Virus record (IMG/VR): IMGVR_UViG_3300025853_000046
Location: 1 to 64,000 of that record
Strand: one strand, 5' to 3'
Length of the DNA: 64,000 nt
Source: a virus
The translations under genes and the position numbers were made by a program. This document shows, piece after piece, positions 1 through 42,557 of this stretch (position 1 is its first letter; the number at the start of each line of letters is the position of its first letter). The notes beneath the pieces are model-generated. The model was not told the origin of the DNA. It searched no databases and saw only the letters and a program-made list of their open reading frames with translations.

Positions 1-1051
1 TTCGTAATCGTGTAACAAACCGTTCTTTTTACAACTGTGGAAAAGAATTCAGGAATCTGGCGCAGGAGAACCGGGTATTTACTTTAGTAATGACAAAGAT
101 TGGGGAACGAATCCTTGCTGTGAAATAGCATTGAGACCTTATCAATTCTGTAATCTTACAGAAATTAACGCTTCGTCAGTAACATCAGAATTAGATTTCT
201 ACGGAAGATGTGAAGCCGCTGCATTATTAGGAACTCTTCAGGCTGGTTATTCTGACTTTCATTATTTGCGAGATTGTTGGAGAAAGGCAACGGAAAAGGA
301 TGCACTTTTAGGTGTAAGTATGACAGGAATTGCTTCAAATACTTACGAAAAACTTGGTGTAAATCCTGAAACTTTGTTGGCTTATGGAACAGAAATTATC
401 AAGCAAACTAATAGAATATATGCAGAAAAAATTGGAATAAAATCTGCGAGTAGACTTACATGTATCAAGCCCGCTGGAACTACTTCCCTTGTTTTAGGAA
501 CTTCTTCCGGAATCCACGCATGGCATGATGACTTTTACATTAGACGCATTCGTGTTGGAAAGAATGAGGCAATTTATTCTTATCTTGCCAATGAACATCC
601 TCAACTTGTTGAAGATGAATACTTCTCGCCACATGATACAGCGGTAATTAGTATTCCTCAAAAAGCACCCGAAGGTTCTACAACTCGTAAAGAATCGGCA
701 CTTTCGCTTCTTGAAAGAATCCGTTTGTTTTCAAAGACTTGGGTTCGTAGCGGTCATGTTGATGGTATTAACACTCATAATGTTTCTGCTACGGTTTCAC
801 TTCGAGAAGGGGAATGGGATTTTGTAGGAGAATGGATGTGGAATAATCGAGAATATTATAACGGACTTTCTGTTTTACCTTACAACGGTGGCACATATAA
901 ACAAGCACCGTTTGAAACAATTACTGAAGACGAATACAATGAACTTGTAGGAACTTTGAATAAGGTAGACTTAACACAGATAACTGAACTTGAGGACAAT
1001 ACAGACCTCAAGGGAGAAATTGCATGTGCTGGTGGAGTTTGTGAGATATAA
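1..1051 (+). CDS. nrdJ: Class II (adenosylcobalamin-dependent) ribonucleotide reductase, C-terminal part; 5' end outside window
   Basis: The frame upstream of the listed start at 131 reads LWKRIQESGAGEPGIYFSNDKDWGTNPCCEIALRPYQFCNL (NPCxE motif). Also LGVSMTG, TCIKPAGTTS and the C-terminal redox pair CAGGVCEI. Apparent 1-nt frameshift near nt 15-20. Confidence 0.93.
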
Positions 1052-1459: not shown

Positions 1460-1704
1460 GAATCGAATTTCACATTGTAGATGATGCCGAACTTCCTCCG
1501 ATTACTATTGCTATGGACAACGATGGCCTACATCCTATATTGTATATTAATCAATATCATAGGATTTGGTTAGGATTAATGAGAAATGCAATTCCGGGAA
1601 TGGCACAACAAATGCAAGATAAACTCACTGAACTATGTGATGGATTCTTGCAGGAACAGATAAGATTTAAACAAGCAGATGAGGCGTTTTTAGATGACGA
1701 ATAA
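1456..1704 (+). CDS. Hypothetical protein
   Basis: Translationally coupled ORF, 82 aa. Confidence 0.65.
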   Translation: MRIEFHIVDDAELPPITIAMDNDGLHPILYINQYHRIWLGLMRNAIPGMAQQMQDKLTELCDGFLQEQIRFKQADEAFLDDE

Positions 1705-3007
1705 AATAGAAAAATTGAGAGAAAGAATAAAAGAAAATGGTGGAAACTTATATCGTGTAACTATTTCTCAACAACAGCAACAGTTGACTAATTTTTGGTC
1801 TACAGTTAGCACACATAAGGAATCTGCTCATTATTATTATAGAAGGAATCGAGGAAATAACGACCATACGGTGAGAAGTGGAAACGACCAATCGGTTAAT
1901 TACTTTGCTAAAACATCCGTTAATGCTATGAATAATGCTTTAAATAGAAACAGTGTAGTATGTTTTATGAATGAATATTGTAATGTAATCATACAACATT
2001 TTGAAAAAAAATACTACATCAATGGAAACATGGTAACAAAATCAAGACTCAATGGTATTATTCCTGCAATTATGATGAGATTGAATATTTGTAAATCTCA
2101 AGAAAAAATGGATAAGGTTATTGATTTGGCTGTCGTTACTGACCCCATTATTTCTTCTGCAATTGTAAATAAAATTGAATACACTTTCTATAACAAAGGT
2201 GAAAAGGTAGTCACATTATTGAATCTGGAAAAGACATCCAAAGAAACTTCAGCCATTGAACTTTATGAAGGTCTTTGGTGTGACTTCAAGGATAGTAAAA
2301 TTAAATCTTTTATCAATTCGTGTAGGGGTAATAAAAATAAATACCTCGGTATAAGTCCCGAAGAACTACATTACGAGTCACGGGGAGAATTTTTAACTGA
2401 TAGTCAAGTTCAAGTCGTATATGCTTTCTTAGAACAGAACCGTAAGTCTTCTTTAGTCGAGAAGCGTAGCATGGAATTGTTCAAGGATTTAACTGAGCGA
2501 TTCAAGGGTAAGATATTTGAGGTTCAAATGAATGTTGAAGGTAGTAAAGGTGTATGGTCTGCGAAACAGGCTATGGCTGTAAAAGGTAAAATATTAGATT
2601 GGGTAGTAGTAGATAGAGGATATAAAAGGGGGCGACAAGATGTTTCAACATATGCTCTCATACCTATGTCTAATTACAGAAAGTTAAAATCGGAAAGAGG
2701 AACTCATAGATGGACTTGTAAAAAAGGTGATAATCAATTAGTTCCCAACATTTCAAATACTACAAATCTTTGGACTTGTAAAACAAGTGAGGAACTTTAT
2801 TACGCCTTGGGGCCAATTTGTATAGACCAAGCACATAGCGGAGTTTCTCTTGGAGACCAATTTGCTGCTCGGTCTATGGCTTTGTTAAATGATATTCATA
2901 GTTGTAGCCAAGTTTCTACTCTTCGTGGGTATGAAAATTATAGACCAGAATTAAGGGTTGATTGGGATGCCGTGTCTTTACTGCAAAGGTCGGAAAAGTA
3001 TAAATAA
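1694..3007 (+). CDS. Hypothetical 437-aa protein with an E2-like cysteine motif in the C-terminal domain
   Basis: Long ORF. C-terminal GPICID (Cys376) resembles the E2 active-site G-x-I-C-L-D, but there is no HPN. Function is inferred. Confidence 0.5.
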   Translation: MTNKIEKLRERIKENGGNLYRVTISQQQQQLTNFWSTVSTHKESAHYYYRRNRGNNDHTVRSGNDQSVNYFAKTSVNAMNNALNRNSVVCFMNEYCNVIIQHFEKKYYINGNMVTKSRLNGIIPAIMMRLNICKSQEKMDKVIDLAVVTDPIISSAIVNKIEYTFYNKGEKVVTLLNLEKTSKETSAIELYEGLWCDFKDSKIKSFINSCRGNKNKYLGISPEELHYESRGEFLTDSQVQVVYAFLEQNRKSSLVEKRSMELFKDLTERFKGKIFEVQMNVEGSKGVWSAKQAMAVKGKILDWVVVDRGYKRGRQDVSTYALIPMSNYRKLKSERGTHRWTCKKGDNQLVPNISNTTNLWTCKTSEELYYALGPICIDQAHSGVSLGDQFAARSMALLNDIHSCSQVSTLRGYENYRPELRVDWDAVSLLQRSEKYK

Positions 3008-3569
3008 ATCTATTGACCTGTATGTTTGTGATAGTTGTGGGTTAATTTCCGCTACAAGAATCATTGAAACAAATAGTGGGGTAGAAGTAGATAGAAACTT
3101 AGTAGAATTATCAATACTTTGTAGTGAGTTTGAGATAGAGAAAACCGAGAGTATAAAAAGAATGTTCCGTTCATCTTATGTTGCCCTTCTGAAAGGTAAT
3201 TATAATTTGTCGGAACTCGCTGTTGCCGTAGTGTTTCTAAATAATAAGTGGCTTAACTTAGCAAAGTTGGGCCGATTCATGGGGATTAAAACAAGACGGG
3301 CTAAAACAGTGGTAGCGAGATTACAGGAAGTTTTTCATATAGATTTAGTTTATTCTATTGAAGAAGCGCATGGTTTCTGTGATAACAACAACATCAATGC
3401 AAAAGAATTAATTACGAATATTGCAGGGCAGATGGAACTAACAAGAGAAGTTCTAATGTCTTGCATATATTTGGCTACCGACTTGTCATACGGTAAGGTA
3501 GCGAGAATGTTTCATGTAAGTGAAAATACCGTATGGCGACATGTAAAAAAAATGGAGAGATATGAATGA
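2967..3569 (+). CDS. Divergent TFIIB/TFB-like transcription initiation factor
   Basis: N-terminal Zn ribbon CLYC...VCDSCGLI. Cyclin-repeat-like segments (LLKGNYNLSELAVAVVFL; LMSCIYLA). C-terminal HTH SYGKVARMFHVSENTVWRHVKKM matching the TFB BRE-binding HTH pattern. Confidence 0.7.
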   Translation: MPCLYCKGRKSINKSIDLYVCDSCGLISATRIIETNSGVEVDRNLVELSILCSEFEIEKTESIKRMFRSSYVALLKGNYNLSELAVAVVFLNNKWLNLAKLGRFMGIKTRRAKTVVARLQEVFHIDLVYSIEEAHGFCDNNNINAKELITNIAGQMELTREVLMSCIYLATDLSYGKVARMFHVSENTVWRHVKKMERYE

Positions 3570-4312
3570 AAAAAACAGTCAAAGAAATGAAATGTGGTTA
3601 TTGTAGTGTTATAGGACATACAGCAAGAACCTGTGAAGATAAAAAGAAAAATAAAGTTAAGGAAGAAAGAAAAACTAGAAGGAAACAGGCCAAAAGATTT
3701 TATTATGCGGATAGTAAAAAACTTTCAAACTTGACTAATAAGTTAACTGAAGAAGGTAAATTGAAATTATTAAACAATGGCACTCTGAATAGTAACCATT
3801 TCTTAGTTCAAACTAAACCTGAAACCGCAATACAAGAGAATCTAGTAGAACCTTTGTTCGCCTTACTTGCAGCAAGAGCCAAGACTGAATCTTGTAAAAC
3901 AGATTACAGTCGTGAACCTCATTTCAAAACCGTGGATAACAAAAATAAGTATTTGGACTATCTACTAACTGTTTCTTTTAAGGGGCATAAATCACCTGTA
4001 AAGTGGTTGATTGAAGCGGAAGCACCTAATCAAACACATAAGGGTATTGAGCAGATAGAAGATTTCTTGGCAGAAGTTCCTAATGTTAATGAATATAGAT
4101 TTATCGTAACTGATGGCTATTGGTATCACTTTTGCTTACCAACAGTAGACAGTGTTTTGGAATGGACAAGTTTTACAATAGACGATAAAACATTCTTGAT
4201 GGATGATTTAGTTACGGGAACGATGTTGGATTTAAACCCAATTCAAAATCTAAAGAAGTTGGGAATGGTAATAGGCATTTTAGTGATTGGCCTTATAATC
4301 ACTTTTGTATAA
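3566..4312 (+). CDS. CCHC zinc knuckle + HsdR_N-like restriction-endonuclease-fold domain + C-terminal transmembrane helix
   Basis: CGYCSVIGHTARTC; ET..ENLVEPLF, LDYLL, LIEAE, EQ, IVTDG motifs; hydrophobic C-terminus LGMVIGILVIGLIITFV. Confidence 0.6.
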   Translation: MKKTVKEMKCGYCSVIGHTARTCEDKKKNKVKEERKTRRKQAKRFYYADSKKLSNLTNKLTEEGKLKLLNNGTLNSNHFLVQTKPETAIQENLVEPLFALLAARAKTESCKTDYSREPHFKTVDNKNKYLDYLLTVSFKGHKSPVKWLIEAEAPNQTHKGIEQIEDFLAEVPNVNEYRFIVTDGYWYHFCLPTVDSVLEWTSFTIDDKTFLMDDLVTGTMLDLNPIQNLKKLGMVIGILVIGLIITFV

Positions 4313-4324
4313 GGAGAGATAAAA

Positions 4325-4882
4325 ATGAAAAAAAATAAAATAATGATTATCGGATGCGGTGGAATTGGTTCGTTCTTAATTCCACTACTTGACCGAGTAG
4401 CGATGTATGATATTACGGTTTATGACCCTGATGTTGTAGAGACAAAAAACTTGACTTATCAAAACTTTGATTACGATGATGTGGGCGTGAATAAAGCAGA
4501 AGCACTGTCGCAAAGATTTAACTTTGAGCCTCAACCTTTTAAGGTATTGACACCTCAACAAATTTCTGGATACGATTTAGTTATTTGCTGTGCGGATAAT
4601 TTAGATGTAAGAAAGATGATGTATAAGTCTGATATTACTTGGCTTGATTTGAGAGCACAGGGTAGAGCAGGATTACTAATCAGTTCTGATGAAGACCCTA
4701 AACTTTACTCAACCTTGACAGCAGGGCCTGAAGGTTCTTTTTCTTGTCAAGGTGACTCATGGGATAAAAGTAATCAAGGTGTTCACTTTACCCATGTAGC
4801 AGTTGCCGGTTACGGTGCTCAATGGGTTCAAAGACATTTTGCTGGAGACTTTACTCCGAAACACATACAGGTGAGCGCATGA
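4325..4882 (+). CDS. ThiF/MoeB/E1-like adenylyltransferase
   Basis: IMIIGCGGIGS nucleotide-binding loop, YDPD, KNLTYQ (SNLxRQ variant), NKAE, VICCADN..R; candidate catalytic Cys141 in FSCQ. Confidence 0.9.
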   Translation: MKKNKIMIIGCGGIGSFLIPLLDRVAMYDITVYDPDVVETKNLTYQNFDYDDVGVNKAEALSQRFNFEPQPFKVLTPQQISGYDLVICCADNLDVRKMMYKSDITWLDLRAQGRAGLLISSDEDPKLYSTLTAGPEGSFSCQGDSWDKSNQGVHFTHVAVAGYGAQWVQRHFAGDFTPKHIQVSA

Positions 4883-4992
4883 GAAAATGGCTAATACGAA
4901 GACAACTTAGAAAGTTAAATAGAGAATATAACAGGGTTTTGAAAGTCTACCCAAAGAAAAAGAAAGACGATGATTACGGAGGCGATGATTAA
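4879..4992 (+). CDS. Unannotated 37-aa basic peptide MRKWLIRRQLRKLNREYNRVLKVYPKKKKDDDYGGDD
   Basis: Exactly fills the gap between ThiF (ATGA overlap) and JAB (TAATG overlap). Confidence 0.6.
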   Translation: MRKWLIRRQLRKLNREYNRVLKVYPKKKKDDDYGGDD

Positions 4993-5726
4993 TGGATAAA
5001 ATAGTAAGAAGAGAAATAATTGGACATGAAGAAGAAGTTACCGAGGATATGATAGACCTGTTCTATGAAACTTGGGAACCGACAAACGACGCAGAATATA
5101 TTGATGAACTCGTAACAAATGATAGATACGAAATTGAAGCAATTATCCGTGAAGAAAATGAAGATGAATGGATTCAAGAAACCTTACAAACATACGGTGC
5201 TAAAATTACACCCAAGTATGAAGGTGGAGTAATGGGTTCTTTCTTTCGTGGAACAGAACCTAAAGGGCCCCTAAATGTTCAACATACAGATATTGCACCT
5301 GAAGTCTGGCAAAAAGAAATTAATACGGTTTGGGAACACTTACTAAGAAAGGGTGAAGATGTTCCTCGTGACCGAAGATTCCTTGATGCTATTTGGGATG
5401 CTTCAACAAATATACTTCCGGGTCTTGAAATATCAGTTATCATAGACCGTAAAGGAAAACTATTTATGAATAGTGGAAGTCCGGGTTATGTAGATTACGG
5501 GGGAGTAAATGTTTCAGGAATGAGTATTCCTATCCGATGTTGGATTCATACTCATCCATTTGGTTATGCCTTTTGGTCTGGAACAGATAATAGAACTTTG
5601 CGTAACTGGAGACCTATTAACCAAGAAGCAATTGTTATTGGAAAAGGAGAACATATGATATGGGAGAAAACAACAGAAGGGGAAAGAATGACGAAGATAG
5701 TAGACCGAGAAGCCTTCGAGTTGTAA
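4992..5726 (+). CDS. JAB/MPN+ (JAMM) metallo-isopeptidase with acidic N-terminal extension
   Basis: Complete JAMM motif E146...H186-T-H188-x7-S196-x2-D199 (LEISV...WIHTHPFGYAFWSGTD). Confidence 0.85.
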   Translation: MDKIVRREIIGHEEEVTEDMIDLFYETWEPTNDAEYIDELVTNDRYEIEAIIREENEDEWIQETLQTYGAKITPKYEGGVMGSFFRGTEPKGPLNVQHTDIAPEVWQKEINTVWEHLLRKGEDVPRDRRFLDAIWDASTNILPGLEISVIIDRKGKLFMNSGSPGYVDYGGVNVSGMSIPIRCWIHTHPFGYAFWSGTDNRTLRNWRPINQEAIVIGKGEHMIWEKTTEGERMTKIVDREAFEL

Positions 5727-6085
5727 GGTTTCCTACTTTTGGAGTTAGGGAAATTGAGTGTCCTGTATGCGAGGGAAACAAATGTATTGTATGTAATGGA
5801 ACAGGATTTTTTGAAATAAGTGGAGAGGTTTGGGCGAGTATTCAACAGCCACATATTATACAATATGTGCATGATAACTTGCCCATCCTTTCTAAGGACT
5901 ATAATACAATTTATGGTTCCGGAATGATTATGAAAACATTGGGTATTCTCAAAAAGAATTGGGAAGTATTAGAGATTAGCAGTCTAATAGGTTCAATGTG
6001 GATATGTATTAATATCCAAACTGCTGAAACAAAACACTTTTATAAAGAAGGAGGACTGAAAAAATGGTTAGTATTAGAGAAATAA
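5660..6085 (+). CDS. Zinc-finger protein (DnaJ-like CxxCxGxG repeat)
   Basis: CPVCEGNKCIVCNGTG. Confidence 0.6.
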   Translation: MGENNRRGKNDEDSRPRSLRVVRFPTFGVREIECPVCEGNKCIVCNGTGFFEISGEVWASIQQPHIIQYVHDNLPILSKDYNTIYGSGMIMKTLGILKKNWEVLEISSLIGSMWICINIQTAETKHFYKEGGLKKWLVLEK

Positions 6086-6918: not shown

Positions 6919-7233
6919 ATGTATGATAATGAAGAAGCACCTAAGAATGTTGAAGAAGGAATTAATAGACTTATAGAAAGCATTTTGTGGGAGGTATTAG
7001 AAGATGAGATGGGACTATATAAAAAGTCACCGTTTAGTAATTATCCTACATGGAAAGATGTAGATAAAAAAAGGTATGATAGAGCCGCAAAAGTTTTACA
7101 TAAAAGGTTAAAAAATATGATGGGAAATAAAGAGGAAGTTAAAATACATAATAAGGAAATTGAAACTTCTTCACATGCAAAGTATAATAAGTCTAAAACT
7201 CTCAGGGATTACATGAGAGAACATGTGGGATGA
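6919..7233 (+). CDS. Hypothetical protein with possible C-terminal PIP-like motif
   Basis: GAGGTGAT SD; SKTLRDYM near the C-terminus. Confidence 0.6.
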   Translation: MYDNEEAPKNVEEGINRLIESILWEVLEDEMGLYKKSPFSNYPTWKDVDKKRYDRAAKVLHKRLKNMMGNKEEVKIHNKEIETSSHAKYNKSKTLRDYMREHVG

Positions 7234-7447
7234 TGATTTAGACCAAGAACCTATCGAAGAAGGTAACATTGTAGATATTATAAGTCACGATGGAGTCAAG
7301 CGTGGTAGTGAAATTGTTGCTGTTCATTGTTTCATATGTGGAGAAAAATTTGTAGGGCCAAAAGATAGAGCCGGAATGTTTATTAAAGGACACAAAGAGT
7401 TTCATCAGTGGGAGATTGTTTTATACGATACCCTCGGTGGGCCATAA
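7223..7447 (+). CDS. C2H2-type zinc-finger protein
   Basis: CFIC-x16-HKEFH. Confidence 0.6.
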   Translation: MWDDDLDQEPIEEGNIVDIISHDGVKRGSEIVAVHCFICGEKFVGPKDRAGMFIKGHKEFHQWEIVLYDTLGGP

Positions 7448-8936: not shown

Positions 8937-9161
8937 ATGAAACAAATGAATGACTATGTGTTAATAAAAAATGAAAGAAGAACTACCACTGACAGTGGTA
9001 TTATATTGAATGCGAACCAAAATGGAGGAATTGTATATGATTCTCCTGTTGGTGATATGGTTGGAAGGTATGTCTATTACAAAAATGGATATACATTTCA
9101 CGATGAAGGGATAGAATATATTGCTATTAAATTAGAAGATGTAGTGGCGGTGAAAGGATGA
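8937..9161 (+). CDS. groES: GroES-like co-chaperonin
   Basis: MNDYVLIK..TTDSGIIL mobile loop; C-terminal YIAIKLEDVVAV; directly upstream of GroEL. Confidence 0.8.
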   Translation: MKQMNDYVLIKNERRTTTDSGIILNANQNGGIVYDSPVGDMVGRYVYYKNGYTFHDEGIEYIAIKLEDVVAVKG

Positions 9162-10699
9162 AGTCTATTTTATATGGAAATGAAGCGAGAGAAAAATTAA
9201 TCGAAGGGGTTAACGCAGTTGCTAATGCAGTTGGTGTGACTTTAGGCCCTGCAACTCGTAGTGTTATTATTGATAGAAGGGATGGCTTGCCTCCTTTGGT
9301 AGTTAATGATGGTGTAACTGTTGCAAAAAATATTATCCTTGAAGATAAAATGGCTAATGCAGGTGCTAAACTTGTCATCGAAGTTGCATCAAGAGCGCAA
9401 GAAAATGCCGGTGATGGAACTACAAGTTCGACAATCATGGCTCAATCTCTAATTGAAAATGGTAAAAATCTACTAAGTCAATATACAGGTGTTGCTATCC
9501 GTAGTGAACTCGAAAGACTGTGTGAAATAACATGTGAAGAATTGGATAATTTATCCTATAAGATTGAGGGTAGAGATATTTACCATGTAGCAAAAATCAG
9601 TGCAAACAATGATGAAAATATGGCTGAACTAATTTACTCAGCCGTAGAAAAAATAGGATACGATGGAGTTATCTCAGTTGAACCTTCACCTACGGGTGAG
9701 GACACTGTTTCTTTTATCGAGGGCTTTGAATGCGACAAGGGATATATTAACCCTGTTTTGACAAAAATATTCGGTGAAAGCAATACATTTGAAAAACCGT
9801 GGATACTAATTTCAAATGCAGATATTAATGACTTTGCTCAACTTATTCCTGCACTTGAATTCGCTAAGAAAAAGAACCGACCTTTGATTGTTCTATGCAC
9901 TTCTATTGGGGCAGTTGCACTAAATACATTTGTAATGAATCAAGTGAACGGGAATATCAACGCTTGTATTGTGCAAGCAGAAGACATTTCATTCTGGCAA
10001 ACTGAGAAGTTAAATGACTTAGCAATTTTTACAGGTGGTAAAATGGTTAACAAGGAATTAGATATGTCAATTGCTGATATTAATGCCTCATACTATGGAC
10101 AATGTAATAAGGCAATTATTTCATCTAAGAAGGCCGCATTCTTGGGCTTCATGGGTGATGATGATTTACTTTTAGAACGCCTTGATGAAATTGCTACTGA
10201 TGAATCTATGGCTGAAAACGAGTTCTATAAAAAGAAACACTCGGTTCGCTATGGAAAACTACAAGGTAATGCCGCAGTAATTGGAGTTAGTGGTATGTCG
10301 GAACAGGAGATGCAAAACAAATTAGAAAGAATTGACGATGCTTTGAATGCTACAAGGGCGGCTATTGCTGAAGGAGTTATCCGAGGTGCAGGTGTTGAAC
10401 TTTATAACTTGACTCCTTCGTTTAGTAATAGTAATGGACAATGTTTAGGTGTTGAAAAAGTTTTCTATGAAGCATTAAAGTCTCCTTTGAAAAAGATATA
10501 TTATAATATTAATGGAGATAGCATGGGTTCTCGATTTGATAATGACATTATGGAAGGACACTTTTACGACGGCAATACCAACACTTTCATACAAAATGGA
10601 GAAATTTTTGACCCTGTTCGAGTTGTAAAGTCTTCACTACGCTCGGCTGTTAGTGTAGCAGGTTATGTCTTAACAGCAAATTGTTTGATAGGTGAGTAG
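9158..10699 (+). CDS. groEL: Group I chaperonin GroEL
   Basis: VTLGP, NDGVTVAK, AGDGTTS, DKGY, ERIDDALNATRAA, DPVRVV; no GGM tail. Confidence 0.95.
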   Translation: MKSILYGNEAREKLIEGVNAVANAVGVTLGPATRSVIIDRRDGLPPLVVNDGVTVAKNIILEDKMANAGAKLVIEVASRAQENAGDGTTSSTIMAQSLIENGKNLLSQYTGVAIRSELERLCEITCEELDNLSYKIEGRDIYHVAKISANNDENMAELIYSAVEKIGYDGVISVEPSPTGEDTVSFIEGFECDKGYINPVLTKIFGESNTFEKPWILISNADINDFAQLIPALEFAKKKNRPLIVLCTSIGAVALNTFVMNQVNGNINACIVQAEDISFWQTEKLNDLAIFTGGKMVNKELDMSIADINASYYGQCNKAIISSKKAAFLGFMGDDDLLLERLDEIATDESMAENEFYKKKHSVRYGKLQGNAAVIGVSGMSEQEMQNKLERIDDALNATRAAIAEGVIRGAGVELYNLTPSFSNSNGQCLGVEKVFYEALKSPLKKIYYNINGDSMGSRFDNDIMEGHFYDGNTNTFIQNGEIFDPVRVVKSSLRSAVSVAGYVLTANCLIGE

Positions 10700-10701
10700 T
10701 A

Positions 10702-10911
10702 ATGGAGGGTGAACCATACTACTTTACAAATTTTACTTCGCATACCAAATACCCAAATACTCCGGAGACGGATATGATGGAAACAGTATTACATATTGTA
10801 AAATTTAAAATAAATGGAGAAGAAAAAACAGTCGAAGTGATGGCAACTGACCCATCAAATGCGATAAATATAGTAAGGAGAGATTTAAATGAATTGGACA
10901 GAAAAGTATAG
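10702..10911 (+). CDS. Hypothetical protein
   Basis: ORF between groEL and RFC with GGTGA SD. Confidence 0.55.
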   Translation: MEGEPYYFTNFTSHTKYPNTPETDMMETVLHIVKFKINGEEKTVEVMATDPSNAINIVRRDLNELDRKV

Positions 10912-11794
10912 ACCGAATGTAATAGGAGATTTGATTGGACAACATAAGTTTGTTGCTGATGCAGAAACATGGATAAGTAAAGGTGATTTACCACCAGTTC
11001 TTATGTATGGAGTTCCGGGGATTGGTAAAACAACTGCGGCACATGTATTAGCAAATACATTCTTAGGTGAAGATAAATCAACAGACTTCTTGGAAATAAA
11101 TGCGAGTCAAGACCGTAAATTAGAAACAGTGAGACAGACAATTACAAACTTTGTCAATACTCGCTCAGTGTCTAATAATAATTTCAAGATTTGTTTTCTT
11201 GATGAATTAGAAGGGATGACTCGTGATTCACAGCGAGCATTGAAAAGAGTTATGGAACGGGCTACAAATGTTCGCTTCATCATAGCATGTAATGACCCAT
11301 ATGCTGTTGATGATGCTATCCGTTCCCGTTGTGCTAATTATTTCTTTCAACCGATACCTGAAGATATTCAGATTACTCGTTTGATGGAAATTGTTGTCGA
11401 AAATAATGTAGATTTTACTGAAGAAAATGCTCGCAAAATTGTAGATATATGCGGGGGAGATATGCGTCGTGCAATTAATGAATTACAGGCGTGTATTTAT
11501 TCTGGAAAAACTCCAGATAATCTACTGAATGAACACATGGGGCCTTACAAAAATTGTTTAAAACAACTTCTTGATAAGAACCCCGACGCTTTAGACTTTT
11601 TACAGCGGCTTGTTTTTGCAGGTCATACTGTAAAAGATATATGCGGTAAACTCCTACAATGTGTTTTAGATATGGAATTATCTTCTACCGAGAAGTTTAA
11701 GGTAGTAGGTGCAGTAGGAGAAATGGAATGGAGAAGCAGAAGTGTAACTCCTAAAGTGCTTGTGGCTTGGTTCACAGCACAGTTTATGAAATAA
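10889..11794 (+). CDS. rfcS: Replication factor C small subunit (clamp loader)
   Basis: WTEKYRP, GVPGIGKTT, LEINAS, LDELEGM, SRC, GDMRRAINELQ. Confidence 0.95.
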   Translation: MNWTEKYRPNVIGDLIGQHKFVADAETWISKGDLPPVLMYGVPGIGKTTAAHVLANTFLGEDKSTDFLEINASQDRKLETVRQTITNFVNTRSVSNNNFKICFLDELEGMTRDSQRALKRVMERATNVRFIIACNDPYAVDDAIRSRCANYFFQPIPEDIQITRLMEIVVENNVDFTEENARKIVDICGGDMRRAINELQACIYSGKTPDNLLNEHMGPYKNCLKQLLDKNPDALDFLQRLVFAGHTVKDICGKLLQCVLDMELSSTEKFKVVGAVGEMEWRSRSVTPKVLVAWFTAQFMK

Positions 11795-16167: not shown

Positions 16168-16340
16168 TGAAAATTAATATTAACGGACACATTGAAGTCG
16201 GTGAGGAATGGGAAGATACTAATTATTTGCGAGAGCATTTAGAGTATTTGTTTATGGAATACCTTCAAGGTGAAGGAATAAGTTTTAAGATTAATGAATG
16301 GATAGTGATTGATAATGATAATAGACACAATGGGGAGTAA
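16167..16340 (+). CDS. Small hypothetical protein (57 aa, not in ORF track)
   Basis: GGAGG SD, TAATG overlap, fills the gap before polB. Confidence 0.45.
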   Translation: MKININGHIEVGEEWEDTNYLREHLEYLFMEYLQGEGISFKINEWIVIDNDNRHNGE

Positions 16341-18756
16341 GATACATCTAAGATGGAGAGAAGACGGACATAGAAAAGAACAAACAATAGAGGATTACAA
16401 GCCATACTTTTTTGTATCAGCCTCATCTAATTGGAACAGTAATAAAGTTATTATTCGCAAATACAGTAAGAAGTATTCAATACCTGTTGAGATTGAATTG
16501 GGCAATTGGACAAGTCTTCACGGTAAAAGGTTAAAGAAAGTAATTTACCATAATCCTAAAGACCGCTGGGCAATTATGAGCCAACTTCATAAAGACGGTA
16601 TCGAAACCTTTCAAGCCGATGTAGATATTAAACGCCTTTATGCTGTTGATTGTATGACTGAGATTAAAGAATACGAACACCGTAAGTGGTATTTTGATAT
16701 TGAATCTCAAGTTGGAGGAATACATGATGGTAAAACAACTGTGCTTAGTATCTATGATTCGTTTACCAAAAAGAATACGGTGATGACATGGTTTCCTAAA
16801 GAGGCCCATGTAGAAACTGAACTCGATTATGTAGAAGTATATGAAAACGAGACTCAAATGTTCTACGCTTTTATTCGTATGATGCAGGAACAAGACCCTG
16901 ATATGATTATCGGTTGGTATGTTCTTGGTTACGATATTCCTCAGATTATCAAGCGTATGTGTAAATTAGGTATTAACCCTAATCTCATGTCACCTTGTAA
17001 CGAGGTTAAAGATGTTCGTAGAAAGTTTGCTAATAGTGAACCTGTTGGTTGGCAATTAGGAAAAGGAACGGGTGAAGAAAACTATTTTAATAGCGCACAA
17101 CCTATTCGAGGTAGATTAACATTCTGCCTAATGGATAGATTTGAACGACTTTGGACTGATTCTCAAAATGGCACACTACCTTCTCTAAAGTTGGATGATT
17201 GTGCAAACCTTGTTCTCGGTGAACGAAAGGTTTCAAGTTCAAAGTTTGAGGACTTGGAGTTCTATGAAAGAGCGTGGTTGGAAGACACACATACTTATCT
17301 CGAATATGCTAAAGTAGATGTAGACCTGTGCGTAAATATAGACAATAAATTAAATGTAAGTGAAAACAGTCTTGCTCTACAACGACTTATTGTATGTCCT
17401 TTTGAGAATACATATCATAATTCTCAAATGGGTGGAGTATATTTTATGCGTAAGTCTGGATGGATTCCCCCAACAGGGGTTAAAACTGAGAAGGAAAGAT
17501 ATGATGGTGCTTTCGTTATGAATCCTGATATTGAGGGAACTTATGGCTTACATGAAAATGTTGCTGTATTTGATTTTAAATCTCTATACCCCTCAATGAT
17601 GGCCGCTGTAAATATCTCTTGGGAAACTAAGCGTGATGAGGGCTACCCTGTATGGATTAACACACCTAAACATTTAGGTGATTTTGAAGAAAAGCCAACT
17701 TATTACTACGAAAAAGATACACTTGGACTTTTACCTCAAGCAGTTATTGACATGATGGCTTTGCGTGATAAATACAAAACTTTGCGTAAAGAGGCTAAAA
17801 CAGACGAAGAGTATATTAAGTGGGATTCGGCACAGATGGCTACAAAGAGGGCGGTAAATGCTTTCTACGGTATTCTCGCAAAAGAAGGTTTTGGTTGGGC
17901 TGATATGGAAATGGTTCAATCAATTACTGCTTCTGCTCGTCATGCTATGCGTGAAACTGCCTTCAAAGCGCAAGAATTAGGCTATGAAGTTATTTATGGA
18001 CATACTGATTCTGTTTTTGTAAAGGTTCGTGATGTAGAAGACGCAAAACAACTTAGAGTGTTATTAAATGATTATATTTCACAAGAAATCTTCAGAGAAC
18101 CTGTAGAATTAGAGTTTGAAAAGTTTGCCAGTAAGTTTTTCCTTTCTAAGAAGAAAAATCGCTACTGCGGTTATCTTTCTTGGAAGGATGGGGAGTATTT
18201 AGACGAAGATAAGTTCTTCGTAATGGGTTTTGAAATGAAGAAGTCAAACGAAACTAAAATAGCAAAGAAATTTCAAGAAAAATTATTGAAAATGGTTGCA
18301 TCCTTTGAAGATAAAAAAACTATTATTGATTATTGTAATAGTCAATATGCAAAGGTCATAAAAGGTGAACCAAACTTGAAAGAAATTAGTAAAAGAAGTA
18401 GACTTCGTAGAAATATTGAGGACTACGAAATGATTGCTGGCGGTTCTGCTGGTATTATTTACCATAATCAACAAGGATTGGGTAAAATTAAGAAAGGCGA
18501 TGCGTATTATTACTTTAAGATAAATAATACAGACTTGGATGAAAAATGTTATATCGTAAAAGGTGTATCTAAACCGTGTGAATATATTTCGTTCTTGAAG
18601 TTCAAGGACATAGAAGGTAAGTTCACACCTGATTGGGAGTTCATCGCCAATGGAGAAATAATTAAGAAGGCTATGCTTATATTTGATAGCATGGAGTGGC
18701 CTATAAAACTCATTAAGAAAGACATTAACCAAACAACATTAGAGGAATGGTGGTAA
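16315..18756 (+). CDS. polB: Family B DNA polymerase
   Basis: Exo I YFDIE, Exo II GWYVLGYD, FDFKSLYPS, KRAVNAFYG, YGHTDS, KKNRY; C-terminal PIP box QTTLEEWW. Confidence 0.97.
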   Translation: MIIDTMGSKIHLRWREDGHRKEQTIEDYKPYFFVSASSNWNSNKVIIRKYSKKYSIPVEIELGNWTSLHGKRLKKVIYHNPKDRWAIMSQLHKDGIETFQADVDIKRLYAVDCMTEIKEYEHRKWYFDIESQVGGIHDGKTTVLSIYDSFTKKNTVMTWFPKEAHVETELDYVEVYENETQMFYAFIRMMQEQDPDMIIGWYVLGYDIPQIIKRMCKLGINPNLMSPCNEVKDVRRKFANSEPVGWQLGKGTGEENYFNSAQPIRGRLTFCLMDRFERLWTDSQNGTLPSLKLDDCANLVLGERKVSSSKFEDLEFYERAWLEDTHTYLEYAKVDVDLCVNIDNKLNVSENSLALQRLIVCPFENTYHNSQMGGVYFMRKSGWIPPTGVKTEKERYDGAFVMNPDIEGTYGLHENVAVFDFKSLYPSMMAAVNISWETKRDEGYPVWINTPKHLGDFEEKPTYYYEKDTLGLLPQAVIDMMALRDKYKTLRKEAKTDEEYIKWDSAQMATKRAVNAFYGILAKEGFGWADMEMVQSITASARHAMRETAFKAQELGYEVIYGHTDSVFVKVRDVEDAKQLRVLLNDYISQEIFREPVELEFEKFASKFFLSKKKNRYCGYLSWKDGEYLDEDKFFVMGFEMKKSNETKIAKKFQEKLLKMVASFEDKKTIIDYCNSQYAKVIKGEPNLKEISKRSRLRRNIEDYEMIAGGSAGIIYHNQQGLGKIKKGDAYYYFKINNTDLDEKCYIVKGVSKPCEYISFLKFKDIEGKFTPDWEFIANGEIIKKAMLIFDSMEWPIKLIKKDINQTTLEEWW

Positions 18757-40910: not shown

Positions 40911-42557
40911 TTATCCTTGAATAATCCAATTTGTTGCATGAGTACACGAATGTAACTCAAGAGGTTGAATAGTCCAATTAACTGTAATTGGGCCTTTGTC
41001 ATTTGTAAGTGGGAAGTCTGCATTTGTCACCATGAAGTCCTTGAAAACCATTGACAAAGTTTCATCATTGGTTGTAGTGTCTTTGACAAAGTTAATTTTA
41101 ATTTGATTGCCGTCAGTTCCCGATAGAGAAGTAGCGGCATTATTACGCAGTTCCTCGAAAAGAAGATTGTCAGTGACTAAACCTGTAAAGGAAAGACTGT
41201 AAGTTCTTTGACCGGGAATATGTGTTTGACTGTTCTTATCGTAGCGACCAATAAATCTCTTTGGTTGTAGGCTATTTGAAATATCCAAAGTCATGTTCTC
41301 AATACGAATATAGTCCTGCCCAAACATCTCAATTGTTCCATCGGAGAAGAAAAAAGGTCGTAATTGTTCTTCACTAATATTTGCTTGACCGCCTTTAGGA
41401 GAACCAAAGTTAACCCAATCTTGAAGGTCGGTAGTTTTGTTGGCAGTCACATAATTATTAGGTGCAGTAAATGTATTTTTTGAGTTAAAATTAACATTCA
41501 TTTTAACTTCCTGCCCAGCATCTGCTGTAATATTAAGACTTTCAACTTGACAGCCGGGGTAAATCTTAGAATAAACTGTTTCCGAAATATTTCTTGCTAC
41601 ACCGTTCACAGTGGTTGAAGTAATATCAACTTCTTCCGTAGCCATACTTGCTGGCTTTTTAAGTGTGTATTCGAGAGCAAACGAAGGTAAAATGTGAGAA
41701 TTATTTTCACTAAAGGTGTATGTAATTTTATTTGTTTGAGTATGATTAACTGCCTTTAAATCCGAAGCATCATAATCATCCGGAACACGCTGAATAGGTG
41801 GGCAAATAGTAGTGCCTACAACACGGTAAAATCTTTTTCCACCCGGACTTGAACTTGCAGAATCATAAATAAAGTTATTACCACTTGCACCCGAACCTGC
41901 AATATTAGTCACGGTATTAAAAGATTTATCCGAATCAACAGAAGGTAGTGTGACGGCTGTTTCATTTGTCACTGTTGTAATATCCATATCCCCTAATGCG
42001 TAGTAAAGCCATGAAAAGTTATTTGCAGATAGAGAAAAAGAACCACCGGAGGTAGTTTCTGCACCCTTAAATTGATAAGCCATATTTCGAGTTCCCGAAG
42101 AAAGTGCAATTTGTTTCATTTCAATTGCGGTAGAAGGAATTGTTACTTGGTCTGTAAGTCCAATCCAAGTATCAGAAAGAAGTCGGGGGTTGGAACTATC
42201 TTTAGGTGCTGGAACAGGTGCGCCAAGTCCCTTAATAATACCATAGTAATTTTCAGCAGTTGTTGTCATACCCGCAATCACACTGTCATTAAAAGTAATA
42301 GTAGTAGCGGTATTTGAAGTAATAATTGTTTTGTCTTGAAAGGTGTCGTCGGCATCTAAATATAATTCTAATTCACAGCCACGATATAAATTTGTCACTA
42401 AACTAAATTCGTCAGTAAAATCCGAACCAAGTAAAACTGTTAATGTATTACCATTATCTGTTTCTCCACCGGCTTCAAACTTACCTAAATATATATCTTG
42501 TTCAGGTATCATAGATACCATCGCCCCACTGTCCATCCAAATTTCATTACTTACCAT
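40911..42557 (-). CDS. Major tail tube protein with extra domains
   Basis: WLYYALG, PSFALE, YPGCQVESLNI, LDISNSL, GQRTYSLSF; position upstream of the chaperones. Confidence 0.75.
   Translation of the reverse strand: MVSNEIWMDSGAMVSMIPEQDIYLGKFEAGGETDNGNTLTVLLGSDFTDEFSLVTNLYRGCELELYLDADDTFQDKTIITSNTATTITFNDSVIAGMTTTAENYYGIIKGLGAPVPAPKDSSNPRLLSDTWIGLTDQVTIPSTAIEMKQIALSSGTRNMAYQFKGAETTSGGSFSLSANNFSWLYYALGDMDITTVTNETAVTLPSVDSDKSFNTVTNIAGSGASGNNFIYDSASSSPGGKRFYRVVGTTICPPIQRVPDDYDASDLKAVNHTQTNKITYTFSENNSHILPSFALEYTLKKPASMATEEVDITSTTVNGVARNISETVYSKIYPGCQVESLNITADAGQEVKMNVNFNSKNTFTAPNNYVTANKTTDLQDWVNFGSPKGGQANISEEQLRPFFFSDGTIEMFGQDYIRIENMTLDISNSLQPKRFIGRYDKNSQTHIPGQRTYSLSFTGLVTDNLLFEELRNNAATSLSGTDGNQIKINFVKDTTTNDETLSMVFKDFMVTNADFPLTNDKGPITVNWTIQPLELHSCTHATNWIIQG

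Follow-up and report, generated by a model that had tools for sequence, protein, structure and literature searches.

Systems in which an E1-like adenylating enzyme and a JAMM metallopeptidase act on a ubiquitin-like protein (Ubl) are found in archaeal cells, where they carry out sampylation, and in bacterial anti-phage defence (Bil, CBASS Cap2/Cap3 and Bub). In Haloferax the E1 UbaA alone conjugates the small archaeal modifier proteins (SAMPs), which are of ThiS/MoaD type, and the JAMM peptidase HvJAMM1 removes them (PMC4443979, PMC4895103), while in Bil the peptidase pre-processes the Ubl and exposes its C-terminal glycine (PMC10557695). Here the same toolkit is described on the virus side, in a magrovirus, a tailed virus of marine group II archaea, whose genome is represented by a 90,822-bp record (IMG/VR IMGVR_UViG_3300025853_000046, rated 100% complete); the stretch analysed, hereafter the window, covers the 64,000 nucleotides at positions 1-64000 of this record. 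The module has three core genes, for a Ubl, a minimal E1-like enzyme of the ThiF family and a JAMM peptidase (JAB), which very probably form one functional system, and p437, an orphan protein with an invariant cysteine in a C-terminal domain of E2-like appearance, is probably its fourth member. That the Ubl, the minimal E1 and the JAMM peptidase conjugate proteins, as their counterparts do in sampylation, is the reading that we prefer, at about even odds.

The viral E1 had been noticed earlier. The RaFAH report counted a MoeB/ThiF-family gene among the auxiliary genes that archaeal viruses carry most often, speculating on a link to ubiquitination (PMC8276007), and the Asgard virus Nidhogg carries E1-like genes (bioRxiv 10.1101/2021.07.29.454249). 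Both reports concern the E1 gene alone and do not mention a partner Ubl, a JAMM peptidase, p437 or a fixed arrangement. The main text of three magrovirus papers makes no mention of ThiF, JAB or ubiquitin, and a search of the open-access literature returned no work pairing magrovirus with ThiF or ubiquitin. It appears that the Ubl, p437 and the JAMM peptidase, in the fixed order of their genes, had not been described as a set. The features of the module are as follows.

Record 87954-88160, outside the window: Ubl, 68 residues, ending ...AIVGG-CY, located by a scan of small open reading frames (ORFs) and a hidden Markov model (HMM).
1694-3007, plus strand: p437, orphan protein of 437 residues, with GPICID at residues 373-378.
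2958-3569, plus strand: p203, with an N-terminal zinc ribbon and a C-terminal helix-turn-helix (Pfam HTH_24, E 1e-4; weak A2L and TFIIB zinc-ribbon matches).
4325-4882, plus strand: ThiF-family E1-like adenylating enzyme, 185 residues (Pfam PF00899).
4992-5726, plus strand: JAMM/MPN+ metallopeptidase (JAB), 244 residues, with an invariant JAMM motif.

The set resembles the sampylation system of Haloferax volcanii (SAMP1-3, UbaA and HvJAMM1) in its ThiS/MoaD-type modifier, predicted to be a beta-grasp protein and ending in GG, in its single non-canonical E1 of the ThiF/MoeB type, in the presence of a JAMM enzyme, which in sampylation removes the modifier, and in its archaeal setting; sampylation, moreover, needs no canonical E2 or E3. 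It differs from sampylation in being encoded by a virus, in the size of the E1 (185 residues against about 270 in UbaA), which has neither the CxxC zinc motifs nor the extensions at the two termini, in a Ubl that is a separate sequence family and is made with a presumably cleavable two-residue tail, and in the extra conserved p437 with its putative E2-like domain. With Bil (BilABCD) the viral set shares a layout of four parts, namely a Ubl, an E1, an E2, for which p437 is the viral candidate, and a JAB-type peptidase, and the pre-processing of the Bil Ubl agrees with the variable tail found after the GG of the viral Ubl. Bil, however, serves host defence and has a large E1, in which inactive as well as active adenylation domains accompany a CYS domain, and an E2 recognisable by sequence, whereas the viral E1 amounts to an adenylation domain with nothing added and the E2-like candidate is an orphan of 380-480 residues that is reached by weak fold recognition only.

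The remaining comparisons are with CBASS and with sulfur carriers. The Cap2 protein of CBASS is, unlike the viral proteins, a fused E2-E1 that conjugates the C-terminus of a CD-NTase and not a free Ubl, and comparison of p437 with the Cap2-type Prok-E2_B domain by hhalign gave nothing; no CD-NTase was noticed in the magrovirus scans, which included no search aimed at this enzyme. The sulfur-carrier trios that include a JAB peptidase (QbsC/QbsD/QbsE of thioquinolobactin, CysO/MoeZ/Mec+ of mycobacterial cysteine, and TtuB/TtuC) likewise combine a ThiS/MoaD-like carrier, a ThiF-type E1 and a JAMM enzyme, and QbsE is made with two extra residues after its GG, which the JAB peptidase removes. Their operons differ from the viral module in that they also encode the enzymes that use the sulfur and, in most cases, a rhodanese domain; five complete magrovirus genomes contain none of these families.

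When IMG/VR was scanned with an alignment of the JAB family, 298 confirmed viral contigs were found to encode this protein; 80 loci were kept and compared by tblastn with the proteins of the window. One gene order is maintained across them: ribonucleotide reductase (RNR), o66, o82, p437, p203, thiF, JAB and p141. Of the 80 loci, 68 have thiF ahead of JAB, and in the other 12 the JAB match lies 1.2 kb or less from the start of the sequence; these loci end just upstream of JAB, so that the two genes co-occur in 68/68 loci where the question can be asked. An earlier note on this DNA, made from the sequence alone, had named a lack of co-occurrence of ThiF and JAB in related viruses as evidence against its proposal of a viral ubiquitin-like cluster; the opposite was found, with synteny preserved.

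That note had also described p437, ThiF and JAB as parts of one translationally coupled block. The three ORFs do lie on a single strand in a compact arrangement, in which o82 and p437 overlap by 11 nt, p203 and p248 share an ATGA, p248 and thiF are separated by 12 nt and thiF and JAB by 109 nt; p248, on the other hand, is no conserved member of the block but an insertion present in 4 of the 80 loci. This gene (3566-4312), inserted between p203 and thiF, encodes 248 residues that have a CCHC zinc knuckle at the N-terminal end and a membrane helix at the C-terminal end. Where it occurs it is 71-83% identical, even in loci in which the neighbouring JAB proteins share only about 47-58%, a pattern suggestive of a mobile gene or of a recent exchange. 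The p203 gene stands between p437 and thiF in all gene-order maps, those of divergent loci included, and is possibly a candidate regulator. At the other end, the gene for p141 (5660-6085) overlaps JAB, its start lying 67 nt within the 3' end; it is present in 79 of the 80 loci, follows the chaperonin gene in divergent genomes and carries a DnaJ-like CxxCxGxxCxxCxGxG zinc-finger motif.

The earlier note had suggested looking through the whole genome for a modifier, a small beta-grasp ORF with GG at its end, and this search was successful. Listing the small same-strand ORFs of related loci that end in GG followed by zero to three residues revealed one standout family of 66-78 residues, ending in ...L-T-P-A-I-V-G-G with or without two more residues. 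The HMM built for it found matches in 21 related loci, in 18 of which the gene is placed between o82 and p437, in the string Ubl-c33-c25-p437-p203-thiF-JAB. In the close relatives of the window the Ubl gene lies upstream of the reductase gene, and in the record itself, on the circular map described below, it precedes window position 1 by about 2.5 kb, with thiF following about 6.8 kb downstream of it; its GG is followed by two residues. A further five of five long records (84-96 kb) also have it, on the same strand as JAB and at a distance of 7.5-9 kb upstream, which brings the total to 6/6 long genomes carrying ThiF and JAB.

The AlphaFold2 model of the Ubl (13 sequences, predicted local distance difference test (pLDDT) 78.6) displays the element order of a beta-grasp fold, with a disordered tail starting at residue 65. 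The top 50 Foldseek matches in the PDB are almost all ubiquitin or ubiquitin-like proteins, with weak E-values, and an unbiased fold search puts ThiS and MoaD first, in a list that consists almost entirely of MoaD, a Thermus ThiS-like protein, human MOCS2A, CysO, TtuB, SAMP1 and ubiquitin-like domains. The Pfam ThiS family (PF02597) matches neither the Ubl nor any protein of the five genomes at E<=1, and a sequence search of the PDB gave no match to the Ubl; by sequence it is a family of its own, whose members fall into at least 1,028 clusters (90% identity), none of them named. Residues A62-I63-V64-G65-G66 are invariant. Among 120 relatives listed, 116 have the GG-ended tail motif, and the residues that follow the GG in these 116 are hypervariable in kind and number (two residues in 94, none in 16, one in 5 and five in 1). 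Such a combination of an invariant GG and a short unconstrained tail reads as the signature of a precursor modifier trimmed by a peptidase. The next gene starts 125 nt downstream, beyond a run of eight T, and a downstream ribosome-binding site therefore does not explain the GG codons of the Ubl in this genome. A strict terminator scan 3' of the Ubl gene found nothing; the T8 run is visible 100 nt downstream.

Two other small proteins with a GG near the C-terminus were considered as modifiers and rejected. The p74 protein (window 7223-7447; CxxC...HxxxH) ends in GG plus one residue, and its GG is conserved in about 30 loci; its GGT GGG codons, however, form a Shine-Dalgarno-like site 5 nt before the next ATG, with a stop overlap of the type TAATG, and the homologues that do not precede this next gene end in ...EA, so that p74 was rejected as a Ubl. 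Homologues of p74 ending in ...EA adjoin the module in five divergent loci (L062, L072, L073, L074 and L079), right after JAB in L072 and between the thiF and JAB genes in the other four. The second candidate is an ORF in the gap between thiF and JAB (window 4879-4992) that ends in DDDYGGDD, in which the GG corresponds to the GGAGG ribosome-binding site of JAB. This gap (window 4883-4991 and its equivalents in relatives) is a hot spot of variable small ORFs, many of them ending in runs of Glu or in GG-D-D, and these ends result from the purine-rich ribosome-binding site of the next gene and not from protein function.

The E1-like protein matches Pfam PF00899 with an E-value of 1.9e-15 (57.1 bits, cut-off 28.1), with only positions 19-128 of the 238 of the model being aligned. 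In 20 homologues of 55-81% identity the residues G10xG12G13xG15, D34, K41-N42, Q46, K57, D91-N92, R96 and C141 are invariant, so that all the active-site residues by which the earlier note had recognised an E1/ThiF adenylyltransferase are in place. D34, K41-N42, K57, D91-N92 and R96 would be the ATP/Mg ligands, as mapped by eye onto what is known of MoeB. C141 lies in an FSCQGD motif, about 11 residues ahead of a G-V...G..G..Q helix, in a region that by eye resembles that of C187 in MoeB. The GxGGxG and FSCQG motifs are intact in 64/64 related full-length ORFs, and the family, with more than 620 clusters, has a mean column identity of 63%.

The protein is short at both ends: only 8 residues precede the GxGGxG loop, and the chain finishes soon after the helix behind the Cys141 loop and is devoid of CxxC zinc motifs. 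The matches to NCBIfam models (ThiF, PRTRC-ThiF and Cap2-type) and to the PADLOC E1-E2 profile (4e-14) cover only the N-terminal 65-100 residues, the best NCBIfam matches being ThiS adenylyltransferases, with scores far under every equivalog cut-off; the PDB profile matches (MccB, Cap2, UBA5, UBA3, Uba4, MoeB and ThiF) fall within the first 65-140 residues. On these alignments the viral protein is a member of the superfamily that stands outside the ThiF, MoeB and UbaA equivalogs. A ThiF domain of crAss-like phages was considered as a possible instance of the same system and rejected: in Bacteroides phage DAC15 it sits inside a protein of 336 residues with no JAB, Ubl or p437 relative nearby.

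The catalytic domain of JAB comprises residues 125-244 approximately, the N-terminal 100 residues or so being variable and missing from some relatives. The complete JAMM motif reported in the earlier note was corroborated, with E146, H186, H188, S196 and D199 invariant in 27 homologues down to 34% identity, and the pattern HxHx7Sx2D present in 79/79 related JAB ORFs. The match to Pfam Prok-JAB is sub-threshold (E 0.073, 13.4 bits, cut-off 25), and the family profile finds AMSH-LP, AMSH, Sst2 and an Rpn11-like protein in the PDB, over the 34-residue motif region only (best E 1.6e-4). The peptidase is retained, with its motif intact, in genomes whose Ubl already ends in GG, and trimming cannot therefore be its sole job. 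The family is essentially confined to viruses. Among 185,579 prokaryote species, each represented by one genome, it was found in only 2 bacterial metagenome-assembled genomes, labelled Maricaulis and Altibacter (contigs NZMJ01000073.1 and NZ_NZTP01000016.1), in both cases on short contigs that also encode the viral ThiF; these are most likely misbinned viral contigs.

The third protein of the earlier note, p437, had been described as E2-like on account of its GPICID motif, a description that the motif and the predicted fold support weakly and that no sequence profile matches. The active-site core of E2 enzymes is G-x-[IV]-C-L-D, which the G-P-I-C-I-D of p437 recalls; its Cys and Asp (C376 and D378) do not vary among 33 homologues, and 59/59 related ORFs have the pattern [IV]C[IV]D. 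The AlphaFold2 model (33 sequences, pLDDT 77) has two ordered parts, with residues 23-67 disordered. UBC, UEV or RWD proteins took up about 22 of the 50 highest rows when the structural search was left unfiltered, all aligned to residues 250-425 approximately and with low Z scores, among them Ubc9, Ube2K, Ubc13, UbcH5c, UbcH10, UBE2O and the E2 of African swine fever virus. The C-terminal domain (about 250-430) is modeled as a helix, a four-strand meander with C376 at a strand end, and four helices. In this model C376 closes strand 368-375, 10 residues before helix 386-398, which is the place expected of an E2 catalytic cysteine.

Several results weigh against such an assignment. No HPN motif is conserved upstream of C376 in the 33 homologues, the only conserved residue there being a Trp at position -5, and HPN is also missing from several prokaryotic E2-like families. 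None of the 33 members matches Pfam at E<=10, the profile search of the PDB gave no match, UQ_con is absent from the five complete genomes, and hhalign of p437 against five Prok-E2_B domains of the Cap2 type returned a probability of 0.2%. Foldseek of the model against the PDB found nothing, and searches of Pfam, PHROGs, NCBIfam, PADLOC, phage sequences by tblastn and the ESM Atlas gave nothing informative. An exhaustive HMM search of 1.84 billion representatives recovered 159 relatives, all with the architecture of 380-480 residues or fragments of it, and BFVD contains three unnamed homologues; p437 is an orphan family confined to these viruses. Overall, an E2-like role for p437 is possible but somewhat less likely than not.

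If the module conjugates proteins, JAB would trim the tail of the Ubl to expose Gly66, and ThiF would bind ATP/Mg and adenylate the new C-terminus. Cys141 of ThiF would capture the acyl-adenylate, perhaps handing the Ubl over to Cys376 of p437, and an isopeptide bond would then link the Ubl to lysines in proteins of the host or the virus, by analogy with archaeal sampylation; JAB would also reverse the conjugates. The fuller version, in which a new Ubl family, the 185-residue E1, p437 as a new E2-like protein and the JAMM isopeptidase make up a complete small cascade that tags host or viral proteins while the virus infects marine group II archaea, is a tentative proposal that falls somewhat below an even chance. 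Some points weigh against conjugation. By eye, the alignment shows ThiF to lack the N-terminal helix and the C-terminal subdomain that touch ATP and the Ubl in MoeB and ThiF, and its alignment to known E1s is limited to the N-terminal 100 residues. Moreover, JAB peptidases also serve sulfur-carrier pathways, as Mec+ does with CysO and QbsD in trimming QbsE, and for that reason JAB alone is no proof of conjugation.

A sulfur carrier is the alternative that survives best, and we regard it as unlikely but substantial. ThiF would adenylate the Ubl, which a host donor would convert into a thiocarboxylate for the thiolation of tRNA, a nucleotide or a cofactor; p437 would be the sulfur-accepting enzyme, and the work of JAB would be limited to maturation of the precursor or to freeing a product from its adduct, in the manner of QbsD and Mec+. 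Such a role would fit the top fold matches of the Ubl (ThiS, MoaD, CysO and TtuB), the likeness of its ...P-A-I-V-G-G to known ThiS/MoaD tails, and the ThiS adenylyltransferases that head the NCBIfam matches of ThiF. A precursor with GG plus two residues trimmed by JAB is the known QbsE/QbsD pattern, the module is placed among genes of nucleotide and DNA metabolism (RNR, ligase and glycosylase), and the invariant Cys and Asp of p437, whose homology to E2 is unproven, would suit an acceptor as well. The Ubl fold cannot decide between the two, since ThiS/MoaD-type SAMPs become protein conjugates in archaea. The absence of thiamine, molybdenum-cofactor and tRNA-thiolation partner genes, which the earlier note had observed in the window, extends to the five complete magrovirus genomes, where no rhodanese, PP-loop ATPase (TtuA/NcsA-type), MoaE or ThiG was found, the weak ThiG matches in two genomes being GMP reductase/IMPDH; this argues against sulfur transfer, as does the C-terminal domain of p437, which matches UBC-type folds and no sulfurtransferase. 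A JAB whose active site is kept where the Ubl already ends at GG, and a p437 that combines a putative E2-like domain with an invariant Cys and neighbors the Ubl in many genomes, point in the same direction. We infer conjugation rather than sulfur transfer from these observations.

It is improbable that ThiF and JAB act mainly on the host, activating its SAMPs or stripping its Ubl conjugates as a counter-defence, with the viral Ubl as a decoy or inhibitor. The Cap2-type E1-E2 profiles of PADLOC among the best ThiF matches, the known ability of JAMM enzymes such as Cap3 to reverse defence conjugation and the published speculation on the ThiF genes of archaeal viruses (PMC8276007; bioRxiv 10.1101/2021.07.29.454249) are in line with it. 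On the other side, a GG-ended protein of their own, predicted to be a beta-grasp, is found in all six long genomes, often in the same gene string, and its invariant GG with a variable, presumably cleavable tail looks like a substrate and not a decoy. The hijacking of host SAMPs, one of the functions offered in the earlier note, becomes less likely with a virus that brings its own Ubl. Very improbable, finally, is that there is no system at all and that these are conserved early-block neighbors acting independently, with ThiF working for instance on a non-protein substrate like TcdA or MccB: the whole RNR-to-chaperonin order is conserved, which makes synteny weak evidence alone, only the Rossmann half of ThiF matches E1s and MccB is among its best PDB matches, but a GG-ended beta-grasp protein, an E1 and a JAMM peptidase are the defining triad of Ubl systems, divergent genomes place the Ubl near p437-thiF-JAB in spite of different surroundings, and every catalytic motif is invariant.

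The assignment of the window to a magrovirus rests on its gene content (family B polymerase, replication factor C (RFC), chaperonin, tail tube and ribonucleotide reductase), which agrees with that of the tailed viruses assigned to marine group II archaea under this name (PMC5434244). The genes of window positions 1-24,000 are tightly packed and all on one strand, and the Ubl module is placed in this early/replication gene region of the genome. Outside the module the following landmarks were identified.

131-1051: C-terminal part of ribonucleotide reductase (PHROG 367, E 4e-54).
9158-10699: GroEL-type chaperonin (family search).
10889-11794: RFC-like clamp loader (family search).
16309-18756: family B DNA polymerase (family search).
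40911-42557, opposite strand: phage tail tube protein (family search).

At least the last 60 bases of the record (90763-90822) are identical to window positions 83-142, and the ribonucleotide reductase gene spans the junction, running from 89854 to the end of the record and on to window position 1051. The repeated ends and the gene that crosses them indicate that the record, though labelled linear, is circular, or permuted with overlapping ends.

An ORF of 74 residues (window 8937-9161) overlaps the start of the GroEL-like chaperonin gene and matches Pfam Cpn10/GroES (23.9 bits against a cut-off of 21.1, E 4.4e-5) over its N-terminal 30 residues; it is kept in related loci. The founding magrovirus paper took the co-chaperonin to be unencoded. 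In divergent magroviruses the genes around the module encode a pyrimidine-dimer DNA glycosylase, a PC4-like single-strand DNA-binding protein and an ATP-dependent DNA ligase, and some of these genomes add an enzyme of the GMP reductase/IMPDH family near the module (coordinates of these extra genes: L046 146-772, 10822-11046 and 11445-12986; L097 1047-2084).

Magroviruses are among the most abundant viruses of the surface ocean (PMC5434244), and their module adjoins the viral GroEL/GroES pair and the replication genes. Should the Ubl turn out to be a sulfur carrier, the module would point to an unknown virus-directed thiolation. If instead the complete cascade is true, it would be the first full conjugation cascade from a virus of prokaryotes, with the smallest working E1. 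Protein conjugation, if true, would provide a tractable minimal E1 of 185 residues with which to ask what an E1 requires, as well as a candidate new E2-like family, and would give the viruses of uncultured archaea a route to rewire host proteostasis.

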